DNA of 64,000 bases. Source: an uncultured Gemmatimonadales bacterium. Lineage in GTDB: Bacteria > Gemmatimonadota > Gemmatimonadetes > Gemmatimonadales > Gemmatimonadaceae. The stretch is taken from contig CAWBZV010000003.1 in assembly GCA_963793305.1 (NCBI GenBank), positions 224,001 through 288,000 on the forward strand, written 5' to 3'. Made by a program: the position numbers. Shown one piece after another: positions 24,001 through 30,000 of the stretch. The first letter of the stretch is position 1, and every line of letters begins with the position of its first letter.

Positions 24001-27000
24001 TCACTTTACGCGGTCACACGGGCGTATTGGACCTTGGCCAGGCGAACGAGCGCCAGGAGGCGGATATAGAACCAGCCCACATCGAACTCGAACCACTTGG
24101 CCTTGAACTTGGCCGAGTGCGGATCGGCGTGGTGGTTGTTGTGGAGCTCTTCGCCGCCGAGCCAGATCGCCAGTGGCACGATGTTCCGGCTCTCGTCCTT
24201 GACGTCGAAGCTCCGGTAGCCGATCGCGTGGCCAATGCCGTTGATCACGCCGGCAGCCCAGAACGGGATCCAGATCATCTGCACGGCCCAGACGATCGCG
24301 CCGATCATGAGGCCGAAGAGATAGAGGTCGATCCCGAGGAGCAGGACAATGCCGAGCGTGTTACGGCGAGTCAGGAGGTGGCGCTCGAGCCAGTCGTTCG
24401 GCGTGCCCTTGCCGTACTTCTCCAGCACGCCGGGCTGGCCAATGGTCTTCCGGTAATAGAAGGCACCCTTGATCAGGATGTTGCGCAGCCCTTCGAGGAG
24501 CGGGCTGTGCGGATCACCCTCGCGGTCGGCAAACGCGTGGTGCTTGCGGTGCACGGCGACCCACTCCTTCGTGACGATCGACGTGGTCAGCCAGAGCCAG
24601 ATCCGCATGGGGATCGACGCGATCGCGTGGAAGGTCACGCTGCAATGCGTTTGCGAGCGGTGCAGAAACAAAGTCACGCACACGTTGGTGATGTGTCCCA
24701 TCACGACCACGACCACGATCGGGATCCACCAGTGTGACGACAAGATGCCGTAGAAGGGCATTCACATTCCTCGAAGATGAGTCGACGCTACTTGAACTTA
24801 GCGGATTTTCCCGCTTCGCGCGACCGGCCTACTTATTGACGCTCGGTGCGTTCAATCCGGCACTCGGTGGAGCGCCCCACGTGTCATTCGCCGGATTCCA
24901 GTCGGGCACCATGCCATCCGGCCAGAGCCGCGCGCCAGTCACCGCGCTTTTGACAGTGACTACCGCCTTGAACACGTTTCCGCGCGACCAAATGTCGACG
25001 GGCAGGTGAACGTCTTGCGTCGACCCATTGGCGAGCGCCAATCGCATGGACACGGGAAACACGATCGACGTGTTCTTGCTCAGGGTCACGACCGCCACCT
25101 CCGCACCGTCCTGCTCGCTGTTCACGACGTTGTCGATGCCGATATCCAGCACGTCGGTCGAGTAAAAGAACCCGCGCCAGAACCACGACAAATCCTGTCC
25201 CGACACGTTCTCCATCGTCCGGAAGAAGTCGGCCGGTGTTGGATGCTTGAACGCCCAGCGATGGACGTACTCCCGCATGGCGCGGTCCATGGTCTCGCGA
25301 CCGATGACATTGTTCCGCAGCGTGAGCAGCACCGCGCCGGGTTTGCGGTAGCCGACCGCGTCGTAGCCCTTTTCGCTGATGTGGTCGGGCGCGGTCATGA
25401 GCGGCGTCTGGGAGCCGTTGTCGACGGCGGCTTTCCAGTCAGCCAGGTATGTGCTCCAGACTGACGTCCCGGGATACCGGGCGTCATTCGCGAACGCATT
25501 CATGTACGTGTTGATCCCTTCATCCATCCACGCATAGCGCCGCTCGTTCGACCCGACGATCATCGGGAACCACTCGTGCCCTTGCTCGTGATTGAGCACG
25601 CGGAAGATCGATTGCGGATCGTCGGTGCCGTAGGGCACCATCACGAACATCGGATACTCCATCCCCGTGAGCGTCCCCGTGACCGTGGTCGCTTGCGGGT
25701 ACGGGTATGGATACAGAAGCTCCGAGTACTGCCGGATGGTCCACTGCGTCATCTCGGCGGCGGACTCCCAGCTTTTGTGTGCCTTGGCGATCTGGTAGTA
25801 CGCCTGGCAGAGAACGCCGTGCCAACTCGTCGCATCCCACCGGAAATCCGGCGCGGCCGCCCACGCCACATCTCTCACGCGCACGGCTCTGAATCGCCAC
25901 GTTTTCGTGCCCCGCGTCGTCTTGGCGACCGCCTCTGAATCCGCGATGATGGCAATGACCGCGCTCGATTCGCTCGCGCGCGCCAATCGCGACTGTTGGG
26001 TGGATGTCAGGACGTCGCGAGCATTTTGTAGAGTCCCGGAGCCCGCGACCGTGTAGCCGGCCGGTACCGTTACCGAGTAGTCGATATCCCCGTACTCGAG
26101 ATAGAACTCGCCTTGGCCGAGGTACTGATCGACGTTCCACCCGCGAACGTCATCATAGACGGCCATGCGGGGATACCACTGGGCGATCGTGTACAATGTC
26201 CCGTCGCGACCCATGCGATCCGAGCCGTGCACCGGCACGACGAACGAGTACGCCACCGCAATCGTGATCGTGCCGCCATGCGGCGGAAGCGGCGACGCGA
26301 GATCGAGCCGCATCATGGTGTCGTGGATCTTGGGCTCGACGCGCACCCCATCGACCTTCACGTCGGACAACGTGTACCCGCCATCAGTGTCCGTGGCGAA
26401 CAGGTACGACCCCTCGCTGCCCGCACGAAACAGATTCTGATCGAGTTGCATCCAGACGAACCGCAATGTGTCCGGCGAGTTGTTCGTGTACCGCACGGTC
26501 ACGGATCCGGTCACACGCTTTGCCCCGGTGTCGAGCGCGGCGGCGATCGTGTAGTCGGCCCGCTGCTGCCAATACTCTGGGCCGGGCTCGCCCGTCGACG
26601 ATCGATACGCGTTCGGCCCAGGCCAATCGTCGCGCTCTTGAGCCTGGGCCGTCACCGCGCCGAGGAGCAACACAGCGATCAGAGCTTTCATATCACCACG
26701 GCAAGAGTGTCGACCCGTCCGGTCGCCTCATCGATGATGGCGACACGGTGGGCATTGGTGTCCGCGACATACACTTTGCCGTCGTGATACACCACACCAC
26801 TCGGCTCGGCGAGCCCACGCACCCAGGTATCAACCCGGCGCGTCGCGGGATCGACCCACTTGATGGCGTCATTGTACGAATCCGTAATGAGCAGCCGGCC
26901 ATCGGGATGCCGCGCGATGCCCTGGGGATGCTCGAGCCGGACCTCGTCGCCCACGCCGTCCTTGTCGCCGAAGTCAAAGAGCCCAGTCCCGACTATCGTC

Positions 27001-30000
27001 TGCACCCTCGCATTGGCTCCCAGCGTGGCGTACCGGACGGCACTCGACTCCGCGTCCACAAAGTCCAGCCGGTCGCCACCGCCCACGATGCCCATGGGCT
27101 GTGCCAGCAATGCCGCCTGAGCAGGGCCGTCAACGATGTCTTCCCCGGGCGCGCCGGCGAAGAGCGAAGCGTGGCCGCCCTCGATGCGCCAGATCTGATG
27201 TCGCCCGGCGCCGGCTACATAGACGGCTGGCCCGACGACAGTGAGGTCCCAGGGTGAAGAGATGCGTCCCGCGATGGGCTCCATAGTTCCGCGGGAGAGA
27301 TCCCCGACTACCACCCGATGGTTCGCCCGATCCGCGATGTACAGCCGGTCGCCAGCAAACGCGACGCCCTGAGGAGACGCTAGCCCGTTGAACTCGCGCT
27401 CGACCCGCATCGCAGTGCCACCCTCGCCGAGCCGGCCGACGAGCACACGGTCGTGCCCGCTATCGGCGATGGCAATGCGATCGCCGTCGATCGTGACCTT
27501 GCCGGGGTACCGAAGGACACCAGGGGCGATTGCCGGATCATCGGGCGGGAAATGCCGAGGTGTCCGGTCGATCAGCCCGTCTGGATCGAACGCTCCAATA
27601 AGCCGCTCGATAAACGGCTCCAGCATCTCGCTCGTGAACTCACCGGCATGCGACCCGACGACATACCCGGTCGGATCGACGGCCACGACCGTCGGCCACG
27701 CCCGCACGGCGTAGCTCCGCCAGATGCGAAACTGCCGATCGTTGACGATCGGATGGAGGTTGTCCAGGCGTAACGCCGCCTCGCGGATGCGCGGCGTCTC
27801 GCGCTCGGCGATGAACTTGCCGCTCTCCACGCCGATGATCGCGATCTCGCGAGGGAACTGCCGCTCGAGCTCCCGCAACTGCGGGAGTACGTGAATGCAG
27901 TTGATTCAGCCGTAGGTCCAGAAGTCGAGCAGGACGATCTTCCCCTTGAACATATCCAGGGTCAGCGCCTGCCCGCCGGTGTTGATCCAATCGAGGCCGG
28001 ACGGGAACTGCGGGGCCCGGACGCGCGGCTGCGTCATCTCTCGTTCAGTCATATGGGAAGAGTAGCAACTCGCCCGCGGGGAAGTCGAAGACGGTGATCC
28101 ATCGACAGAAGAGGTCGGCGCCCAGCGAGCCCGCAATTTTCATATCGCTCGGTCGCACCTCGACCGACTCCGTCACGGTCACGCCGCCAGGTAGTGACAC
28201 AGTGAGATCCACGCGGCCGTTCGGTCCCGGTACAAAGGAAGTCTGCTGGTACCCGATCATGAAACGCTGACCACCGATGGTCACGAAGTTGCCCTTGAAC
28301 GGGAGGCGACTCACGGGACCATCCAGTGACAGGGCGTCGCGAGTGGTCGCGAAGGCCATGGCCGGCACGGATGCGTCGATGGCCACGACACCGTCGTGGA
28401 AAAACTTCATGCACAGGAATCCGCCAATGGGAGGATCTCCGAAGCGGTACTCTTGGCCGACCACCGCGCGCGTACCCGTGACCGTACGACCGAACGCCGA
28501 TAGCGCCCTGATCTCAGTGAAACGATTCGGGCCCTCGGCGCTCACTGCCAGCCCGCGGTCCTGAGCGTACGATTCATACAGAAAGCAATCGAACGTGCGG
28601 CCGTTCGAGAACATCAGCTGGACCGGCTCGTCGTCGATGCGCGCGGGAATGAATACGACGCCGCCGGAGTTCGTCCGACAGCGAACCATCTCCTCCACGG
28701 TGAAACCCAGCTTTTCGAGCCGCGTTGACCAGCTCATTGGTCGCCTCATGTGGCGTGTGTTCCGGCACCGCGCCCATAGTATGGTCATCGGCGGCATGAA
28801 TGTCTTCACGTCCGACGATTCCGACATGGGCCGGGCGGTCGCCTTGCGCGCCCGCCTCGGACTCGCGCTGGACCTCATCGACCAATACGCGCCGCGAATC
28901 GGGGTCCGGCTACGCCGCAACGTCGTCGCCATCTTCCTCTGGCGAGTCGGAGGCACGTCGTACAACCCCTACACGCGAGTGATCCTGGTGGACGTGCGGT
29001 GGGGCATGATAGGGGAGCTCGAAGATCTGGCCCTCTCCCTGGTACACGAGGCGACGCATGCGCGGCAAATGACGATGGGGCTGCGCAAGCTGCGGCGCGG
29101 CAAAGGTCTCGAGCGGCGCATGGAGGCGCACGCGGTCGCCGCGAGCATCGCCTTTGCCGACCGGCTGCCGCCCGGCAGGTGGCGGAAGCCCACGCTCGCG
29201 GATCTCGACAAGAAGTGGTGGACGCTCGAGAACCTGGAGGCGCGACTGACGAAGGATGTGAAGGAGATTGGCGTGCCCGCCGAAGCAATCCGGATGGTGG
29301 CCGGAGCCATGCGAATGCTCGGGCTGCGGCAATGACGGATCAGATCCCGGCCCATCATCGCCCCGGTGGCGGATTTCAGAATCCCTGGGGCCCCGGGAGC
29401 CAGCAAGCGCGGTTCGGACAATTCTTGAGGTGGGCACTGTTCGAGCGCCCACGGACGACACGTCGGGGCACTCCCGACCGGGCCACGTTCGCGGCCGCTC
29501 ACCTGCCCGTGGCGCCGAGCTTCTCGGTTCGCGAGTCGCCCGAAACGCTCGCGATCACCTGGATCGGGCACTCCAGCTTTCTCGTTCAGATCGCCGGGCA
29601 AAACCTGTTGCTCGACCCCGTCTGGGGTGACCGCGCATCGCCGATATCCTGGCTCGGTCCCCAGCAATGGACCCCGCCCGGGATTCCGTTTGACGCGCTG
29701 CCGCCGGTCGACGGGGTCATCCTCTCGCATGACCACTACGACCACCTGGACCAGCCGACTGTACGGCGTTTGGTGAAGCGCTACCCCGAGGCTCAATGGC
29801 GCGCGCCATTGGGCGTGGGACACTGGTTACGCCGAAGGGGAGTGAGCCAAGTGCAGGAGGCCGATTGGTGGGACCAGACCGACCTCGGGCCCCTCAAGCT
29901 CACCGCGACACCGGCGCAGCACTTCTCGGGTCGCCGTCTCGATAATCGAAACGGGACCCTCTGGTGTGGATGGGTCATCCGCGGCGGCGCGGCTCCGCCG

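Follow-up and report, generated by a model that had tools for sequence, protein, structure and literature searches.

A predicted selenocysteine form of the NHLRC2/SOQ1 thioredoxin-NHL protein family in an uncultured Gemmatimonadales bacterium

A gene on the minus strand of the window (the whole stretch of 64,000 nucleotides that was analysed) is predicted to encode a protein of 454 residues in which an in-frame UGA at residue 49 almost certainly specifies selenocysteine (Sec49). The product is very probably a selenoprotein of the cytoplasm that belongs to the NHLRC2/SOQ1 family and combines a thioredoxin-like (Trx) domain with an NHL beta-propeller. The Sec49 reading is supported by the alternation of TGA and Cys codons in orthologues, by a hairpin confined to the TGA forms, by constraint on synonymous codons, and by the Sec machinery of the genome.

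Translation of positions 26688-28052 (minus strand) gives 454 residues with a single internal stop, the TGA at 27908-27906 (contig C3:251908-251906), which lies between FWTYG and INCIH (motif WTYG-U-INC). The first-pass annotation had joined two gene calls into one minus-strand frame of 454 codons with an in-frame TGA, and this is what translation shows: the 396-aa call begins with TTG 27878, and the 43-aa call is compatible with the second ATG, at 28037. The TGA had also been placed at the first Cys of a thioredoxin-type motif, in agreement with the alignment of residue 49 on SOQ1 Cys431. The features of the locus are the following.

26688..28052, minus strand: full gene, 454 aa with predicted Sec49; own TGA stop at its end; alternative start ATG at 28037; frame kept in orthologues.
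27579..28052, minus strand: thioredoxin-like domain spanning roughly residues 1-158 and scoring over the PF13905 cut-off; Pro120 lies in a WPT motif; signal peptide absent.
27906..27908, minus strand: in-frame UGA, predicted Sec49; aligned to SOQ1 C431 (7djj), and to NHLRC2 Cys90 by motif.
27897..27899, minus strand: Cys52, predicted resolving cysteine, equivalent to SOQ1 C434 by alignment to 7djj.
27856..27902, minus strand: extended hairpin predicted here, which includes a lower stem that varies among orthologues.
27870..27887, minus strand: putative SECIS upper stem-loop of 7 bp; the 4-nt loop is AGUU (27880-27877); the whole lies within the L-P-Q-L-R-E codons.
27876..27878, minus strand: rare TTG codon, Leu59, within the hairpin; start chosen by gene callers for the shortened 396-aa product.
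26691..27518, minus strand: six-bladed NHL beta-propeller, about residues 179-454; Glu416 is the inferred equivalent of SOQ1 E859; nothing C-terminal after it.
28045..28965, minus strand: upstream neighbour, overlapping the gene start by 8 nt; retropepsin-like as a lead only; common only to four same-genus loci.
24829..26691, minus strand: M1 peptidase gene on the downstream side; 4-nt overlap with the stop; not kept beyond the genus.

The Trx domain scored above the cut-offs of PF13905, PF00578 and PF08534. Membership of the NHLRC2/SOQ1 family was found both by sequence (E values of 1e-77 and 3e-58 to the NHLRC2 / SOQ1 structures) and in the predicted model (pLDDT 91; TM 0.89 to both 7djk and 6gc1). 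Human NHLRC2 (6GC1) and the lumenal domains of Arabidopsis SOQ1 (7DJJ/7DJK) likewise combine a Trx8-type domain and a six-bladed NHL propeller. The SOQ1 interface residues Y429, R478 and E859 correspond here to Y47, R95 and E416 (the first two by alignment, the third inferred from an EP motif), and R95 and E416 are invariant in 48/48 aligned rows. In contrast to NHLRC2 and SOQ1, Sec replaces the first catalytic Cys and G the preceding Cys, giving GUINC for CCINC. The CC(I/V)NC motif is thus absent, and GUINC was considered as a variant within the family because bacterial Cys forms often have GCINC and some Sec forms have CUINC. The "SOQ1-like architecture" of the first-pass annotation holds for the Trx and NHL domains, but does not extend to the nDsbD-like C-terminal domain (CTD), the HAD domain, the membrane anchor or the signal peptide, all of which are lacking here, so that no export signal is present. 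A CTD was found in 0/35 Sec forms versus 33/47 Cys forms, counts that are not independent of ancestry, and a hydrophobic N-terminus in 5/36 versus 40/47. No separate CTD gene was detected in the genome (HMM built from 33 bacterial CTDs, E values up to 10), and none was detected around the TGA loci.

Orthologues, which the first-pass annotation had left to be checked for Sec or Cys, have both at this codon. Of the 9 other relatives bearing the orthologue, 8 have TGA there, as do 31 of the 77 GTDB loci that could be read. In the merged set, all 83 genes have either TGA (36 distinct genomes) or a Cys codon (TGY, 47 genomes) at the site; four further TGA genomes bring the TGA form to 40 distinct genomes from several phyla. 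The first two positions of the Cys52 codon are invariant in 36/36 TGA rows. That the TGA stems from faulty sequencing or assembly, or from a nonsense mutation that recently made the gene a pseudogene, has a negligible probability and is refuted by conservation; against error, the first-pass annotation had pointed to the coincidence of a substitution falling exactly on the active-site Cys. The assembly does have frameshifts (e.g. in PntB, within the window), but 39 other genomes share this TGA, a contig of another study has it unchanged, 80 metagenome loci among the matches listed carry it, and the downstream frame is intact in 35/36 TGA loci. Run X2 comes from the same study as the best holder and is therefore not independent. 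In two RNA libraries, contigs of relatives span the site (word shares 0.07); such contigs cannot show transcription. Viral contigs searched for the pattern gave 0 matches.

The downstream stem-loop of the first-pass annotation was recovered at the same energy: over 70 nt counted from the TGA the folding energy is -29.7 kcal/mol, and in the shuffled control 0/200 sequences were as stable (z -3.15), but the z value is only -0.98 for a longer stretch of 131 nt. Counted from the TGA, the outer pairs begin at 14 nt and the 7-bp upper stem at 18 nt, and the AGUU loop lies at 25 nt. Bacterial SECIS (bSECIS) elements are described by a loop of 3-9 nt, a stem of 4-16 bp, a G in the first two loop positions, a distance of 16-37 nt from the UGA and an energy of -7.5 kcal/mol or lower (PMC13188914), and the AGUU loop and 7-bp stem at this locus agree with that description. 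Taken alone, the hairpin is weak evidence, because the genome is GC-rich and 438 of its 2042 TGAs ending long frames (21%) fit the same model. Among orthologues, the model fits 33/36 TGA genes (three miss) versus 2/47 Cys genes, and the hairpin beats synonymous-codon shuffles in 29/36 versus 5/47. Where TGA genes code for PQLR, the four codons are identical in 27/27 cases, including TTG, a codon used for 8.7% of Leu residues in the rest of those genes. Among these related rows, 27 cells show two-sided changes (reached in 0/500 shuffles) and covariation is 0.33 versus at most 0.14 when slid, but of the four covariation measures tested by shuffling, two did not exceed the shuffled sets (223/500 and 52/500). 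Rfam and a promoter scan each returned 0 matches. A loose genome-wide scan for TGA, motif and hairpin energy yielded 1649 candidates and was useless without homology.

The genes for tRNA-SeC, SelA, SelB and SelD are present in the genome, and SelD and FdhA each have one in-frame TGA; these elements of the first-pass annotation were all found again. Its count of a "third selenoprotein" was wrong, since a second Fdh-alpha and a peroxiredoxin also have an in-frame TGA at the catalytic position, and at least five TGA-recoded genes are predicted from sequence in this genome. The five matches to the CMD/AhpD family in the genome contain no stop. SelA is above cut-off in 8/8 TGA relatives and 27/28 further TGA genomes (the last has a partial match at a contig end), but also in 38/46 Cys-form genomes and 49/61 relatives, so its co-occurrence discriminates little and was dropped as a criterion.

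It is highly improbable that translation truly stops at the UGA and begins anew at the conserved TTG, yielding a 396-aa propeller protein, with the hairpin regulating the restart. Such a restart would agree with the TTG kept in 27/27 PQLR forms and with its use as the start in databases, but the codons between UGA and TTG keep I/V-N-C while their third positions vary, so this interval is under coding constraint. Several TGA forms have a different hairpin and no TTG (L071, L095, L101 and L047), the split would sever the Trx fold at its active site, and the TGA/Cys alternation across all merged genes also speaks against it. Reading of the UGA as Trp, Cys or Gly, by a variant code or leaky read-through, has just as slight a chance of being correct. 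It draws on a single-domain sister redoxin that shares the UINC site, the codon and the 12-nt hairpin core, and that has W or G at the site in three database entries (either real codons or gene-caller code switches). Against it, the gene's own stop is TGA, as in 2042 long frames of the genome, the sole tRNA with a TCA anticodon is tRNA-SeC, and the hairpin tracks TGA.

Thioredoxin folds with UxxC are the commonest type of selenoprotein, and their decoding mechanism is textbook knowledge. The claim that a Sec form is new to the Trx-NHL architecture agrees with the lists checked: none of 119 listed prokaryotic selenoprotein families is this one or an NHL family, and UINC/UVNC is absent from the GOS and deep-Sep supplements. 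The listed UxxC Trx-fold families (Trx, Prx-like PF00578, thiol-disulfide isomerase-like PF13905/cd02966, Redoxin PF08534) have the same Sec-first UxxC and a hairpin in the coding region, but the isomerase-like and Redoxin representatives are small single-domain proteins with other motifs. The Trx domain of M. tuberculosis DipZ (PDB 2HYX) matches with an E value of 2e-19 and has a CINC site, but is a Cys form without propeller; the sister Sec redoxins resemble this DipZ type and not the NHL type. A DipZ-like match in genome G008 was rejected as a TGA form, its TGA being the terminal stop and its site Cys. The section on bacterial homologues in a survey that picked CC(I/V)NC proteins (PMC6107167) includes no Sec form; the Cys homologues of NHLRC2 described there have the same Trx-NHL architecture, a scattered distribution and no conserved operon. 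NCBIfam gave 8 matches, none to a selenoprotein model, and only a generic propeller-repeat model reached its cut-off. Databases shorten the gene in 106 of the best 120 matches, calling it from after the active site and naming the product "alkyl hydroperoxide reductase" or "YncE".

Following standard bacterial Sec decoding, SelB and Sec-tRNA would bind the hairpin loop and Sec49 would be inserted; when selenium is absent, translation would end after 48 residues. By analogy, the enzyme is likely a thiol-disulfide reductase. As Trx-fold chemistry and SOQ1 suggest, a substrate would sit in the cleft between Trx domain and propeller and be attacked by the Sec49 selenolate at an oxidised sulfur, most likely in a disulfide, Cys52 would resolve the intermediate to a selenenylsulfide, and a cytoplasmic reductant would restore it. 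The Cys-pair CTD of a SOQ1-type Trx-to-CTD methionine sulfoxide reductase (Msr) is absent, the protein ending after the propeller, so its own CTD cannot be the substrate as in SOQ1. The C431/C434 pair of SOQ1 is redox active, with an Em of -274 mV (bioRxiv 2024.11.01.621559). NHLRC2 and SOQ1 are inactive in the insulin assay, and the NHLRC2 structural paper argues against thiol-disulfide exchange whereas the SOQ1 work argues for it. No neighbour of the TGA loci is conserved past genus or family level, and none points to a substrate.

An unlikely but not negligible alternative is that Sec is inserted for something other than disulfide reduction: direct reduction of peroxide, sulfenic acid or methionine sulfoxide, or a redox switch over propeller binding. 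The lack of a CTD in 35/35 Sec forms and of a separate CTD gene in the genome, the failure of homologues in the insulin assay and the Msr end activity of SOQ1 are in its favour. However, the CTD of SOQ1, rather than its Trx domain, carries the Msr activity, a UxxC site followed downstream by Pro has the layout of disulfide exchange, and 14/47 Cys forms likewise lack a CTD.

As to the history of the site, a single Sec clade in the family was rejected, as was co-evolution of Sec with CTD loss (just 4 independent pairs on quick trees, sign test p 1). Cys reversion after loss of the Sec machinery fits genome G036, which has no SelA or SelB match and still has the hairpin, but fails for G200 and G389, in which SelA and SelB are kept and the hairpin is weakened or gone. 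It is a doubtful conjecture that Sec was gained repeatedly in the family, always by lineages without a CTD, that the Trx site itself takes over the task left to the CTD in SOQ1 and directly reduces oxidised residues (methionine sulfoxide or sulfenic acid) of cleft-bound substrates, and that the sister UINC redoxin forms a second selenoprotein family absent from the lists, from which the recoding cassette may have come.

Substitutions of Cys by Sec mark catalytic redox cysteines. NHLRC2 is essential in mammals and mutated in FINCA disease, and has no known biochemical activity. The Sec form, which the selenoprotein lists checked do not contain, points to a systematic gap in annotation, in which the gene is called from a codon after the active site and misnamed. 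It also offers a compact, soluble protein of two domains in which to trap substrates. Predicted Sec at the equivalent site in 40 bacterial genomes gives independent evolutionary support for a catalytic role of the NHLRC2/SOQ1 site.

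Translation of the minus strand bore out the single 454-codon frame proposed in the first-pass annotation, interrupted by one in-frame TGA:

Window 28052-26688, minus strand: Trx-NHL gene, 454 residues, one internal TGA.
Window 27908-27906, minus strand: in-frame TGA of the Trx-NHL gene.

With high probability this is a real, previously unannotated selenoprotein gene, as predicted from its sequence. The read-through product carries a thioredoxin-like domain (PF13905, 39.1 bits for a cut-off of 27) and NHL repeats, and aligns with Arabidopsis SOQ1 (7djj, E 1e-77), where the TGA corresponds to the second Cys in the CCINC motif; its alignment with human NHLRC2 gives E 3e-58. 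An AlphaFold model (48-row alignment, Cys substituted for Sec) had a pLDDT of 91.3 and a TM of 0.89 to 7djk and 6gc1. The closest named relatives among GTDB loci are Gemmatimonadaceae. Residue 76 (window 27825-27827, minus strand) is Glu where SOQ1 and most homologues have the His of a VHS motif, and 406 aa follow the active site, against 431-477 aa in most Sec orthologues outside the genus.

Orthologues were found in 10 of 61 genomes searched as relatives, with TGA in 9 (the source genome included) and TGC in one (G036). The active site was covered in 77 of the best 80 of 136 GTDB loci (31 TGA, 46 Cys), and after removal of 4 loci duplicating others the merged set comprised 36 TGA and 47 Cys genomes; both codon types occur at the site, a point that the first-pass annotation had left unchecked. 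Among 301 genomes drawn from the phylum, 17 matches were obtained (8 TGA and 9 Cys), including 4 new TGA genomes, for a total of 40 TGA-form genomes, two of which (G012, G061) are unpublished, no claim depending on these two alone. By record, TGA forms belong to Gemmatimonadota, Chloroflexota, Thermomicrobiota and Planctomycetota, with one record each in two further phyla. The TGA as an error was ruled out by its presence in 40 genomes and by the identical TGA in a site-spanning contig from a second study. One orthologue (L064) retains both the TGA and the hairpin, yet its reading frame is lost 162 codons downstream.

The tRNA-SeC, SelA, SelB and SelD were all found in the source genome, in agreement with the first-pass annotation, and by established knowledge the UGA would be decoded by SelB and tRNA-Sec. 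SelA was above cut-off in 8/8 TGA relatives and 27/28 further TGA genomes, and also in 38/46 Cys-form genomes, so that its presence is necessary context, not proof, of recoding. G036 (100% complete) has a Cys codon with an intact SECIS stem and one loop change, and a genome search matched neither SelA nor SelB; it is likely a reversion with a vestigial SECIS. Two other Cys-codon genomes (G200, G389) possess SelA and SelB, and their hairpin is weakened or lost.

A shuffle control, which the first-pass annotation lacked for its hairpin, supported the structure over 70 nt (beating 200/200 shuffles) but not over 131 nt. On its own the hairpin is weak evidence, since 438 of the 2042 TGAs terminating long frames in the source genome also satisfy the criteria of the published bacterial model (bSECIS, PMC13188914). 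The question was decided by comparing TGA with Cys genes: bSECIS criteria were satisfied by 33/36 TGA versus 2/47 Cys genes, and the hairpin was significant against synonymous-codon shuffles in 29/36 versus 5/47. All 27 TGA genes encoding PQLR use one codon string, whose Leu codon has 8.7% usage elsewhere in those genes, and most Cys forms have PDLK or similar at this position. In pair counts on 34 distinct rows, 84% of cells were paired, with 27 two-sided changes (0/500 shuffles), two other pairing measures not rising above shuffles. It follows that the hairpin has reshaped the amino-acid sequence adjoining the active site.

The strongly supported branches of a quick tree (82 rows, the frameshifted L064 excluded) require at least 4 Sec/Cys changes. 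A single clade uniting all Sec forms and G036 was rejected in a second test (43 of 83 rows, site columns masked; p-AU 1e-4), this group having been chosen after the first tree was seen. Planctomycete-type Sec forms carry another hairpin sequence, which favours separate Sec origins, on unrooted trees where gain and loss are not distinguishable. A SOQ1-type C-terminal domain (CTD) with a Cys pair occurs in 0/35 Sec versus 33/47 Cys forms, and a hydrophobic N-terminus (crude hydropathy cut) in 5/36 versus 40/47; neither contrast is free of the effect of shared ancestry (4 pairs, p 1). No stand-alone CTD gene was found in the source genome.

No gene neighbour is conserved beyond close kin. Three loci (L043, L044, L046) have Pnt-like genes upstream of their orthologue, and in the window a transhydrogenase gene that we take from its sequence to be PntB (32422-33808, minus strand) is split near 32720-32754 by a frameshift, probably an assembly indel. 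The gene upstream of the Trx-NHL gene (28045-28965, minus strand) had no Pfam or NCBIfam match; the Atlas clusters closest to it, at a score of 0.89, comprise retropepsin-like aspartyl proteases, which is no more than a lead.

The best 120 database proteins comprised 106 without the active-site motif and 14 full-length Cys forms, none with a U residue; GenBank entries of the gene are truncated. No selenoprotein model in NCBIfam 20.0 matches the protein, and no NHL family appears in the whole table of 119 prokaryotic selenoprotein families (PMC13188914). The supplement of PMC2398784, searched with a positive control, contains no UINC or UVNC. Literature searches brought up no account of a Sec form, and it is unreported in the accessible portions of PMC9312934, PMC1088965, PMC2398784, PMC12013277 (supplements searched), PMC13326102, PMC7539508, PMC6107167 and two SOQ1 preprints, a scope outside which lie subscription journals, BSepDB and bioRxiv supplements; PMC7479077, as far as accessible, is unrelated.

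The earlier count of three selenoproteins in this genome was too low, two further TGA-recoded genes being present:

Contig C3, position 1273777, minus strand: second formate dehydrogenase alpha subunit (L137), with its TGA in the UHxP site; the read-through product exceeds the TIGR01591 cut-off.
Contig C12, 272133-272684, plus strand: peroxiredoxin-like gene (L136), TGA at 272346, TxxU-type site and downstream hairpin.

The latter is of a known family type, with TGA in 21 of 25 matching genomes, the remaining 4 being without SelA over cut-off.

A metagenome pattern scan gave at least 120 stretches. The 80 listed (L138-L217; 327 nt per locus) divide by sequence pattern into about 35 of NHL type and about 45 of a sister redoxin (43 assigned by script, 2 reassigned by eye), and 69 of the 77 distinct stretches among them satisfied the SECIS model. 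The sister redoxin is DipZ-like, single-domain and signal-peptide-bearing (about 180 aa). Its TGA occupies the GUINC site as in the Trx-NHL gene (for example in L176, L147 and L151), and many of its loci carry the identical 12-nt hairpin core. Its Cys homologues are full length and its TGA forms are cut in databases; the redoxin may be a second selenoprotein family absent from the published lists.

The C431/C434 pair of SOQ1 is described as redox active (Em -274 mV) and as the electron donor of the CTD, the domain that carries out the reduction of methionine sulfoxide (bioRxiv 2024.11.01.621559), and descriptions of NHLRC2 and SOQ1 locate the motif at the Trx-propeller cleft (PMC6107167; bioRxiv 2021.03.16.435614). 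Sec49 and Cys52 would occupy the places of this pair, from which we infer a cytoplasmic reductase whose electron acceptor would be a separate molecule bound in the cleft. Disulfide reduction is probably the reaction; the rival reading, in which methionine sulfoxide, sulfenic acid or peroxide is reduced directly or the site acts as a switch, seems rather unlikely. Recoding itself is ordinary; the finding places selenium, apparently more than once, at the contested active site of a protein family with an essential human member.
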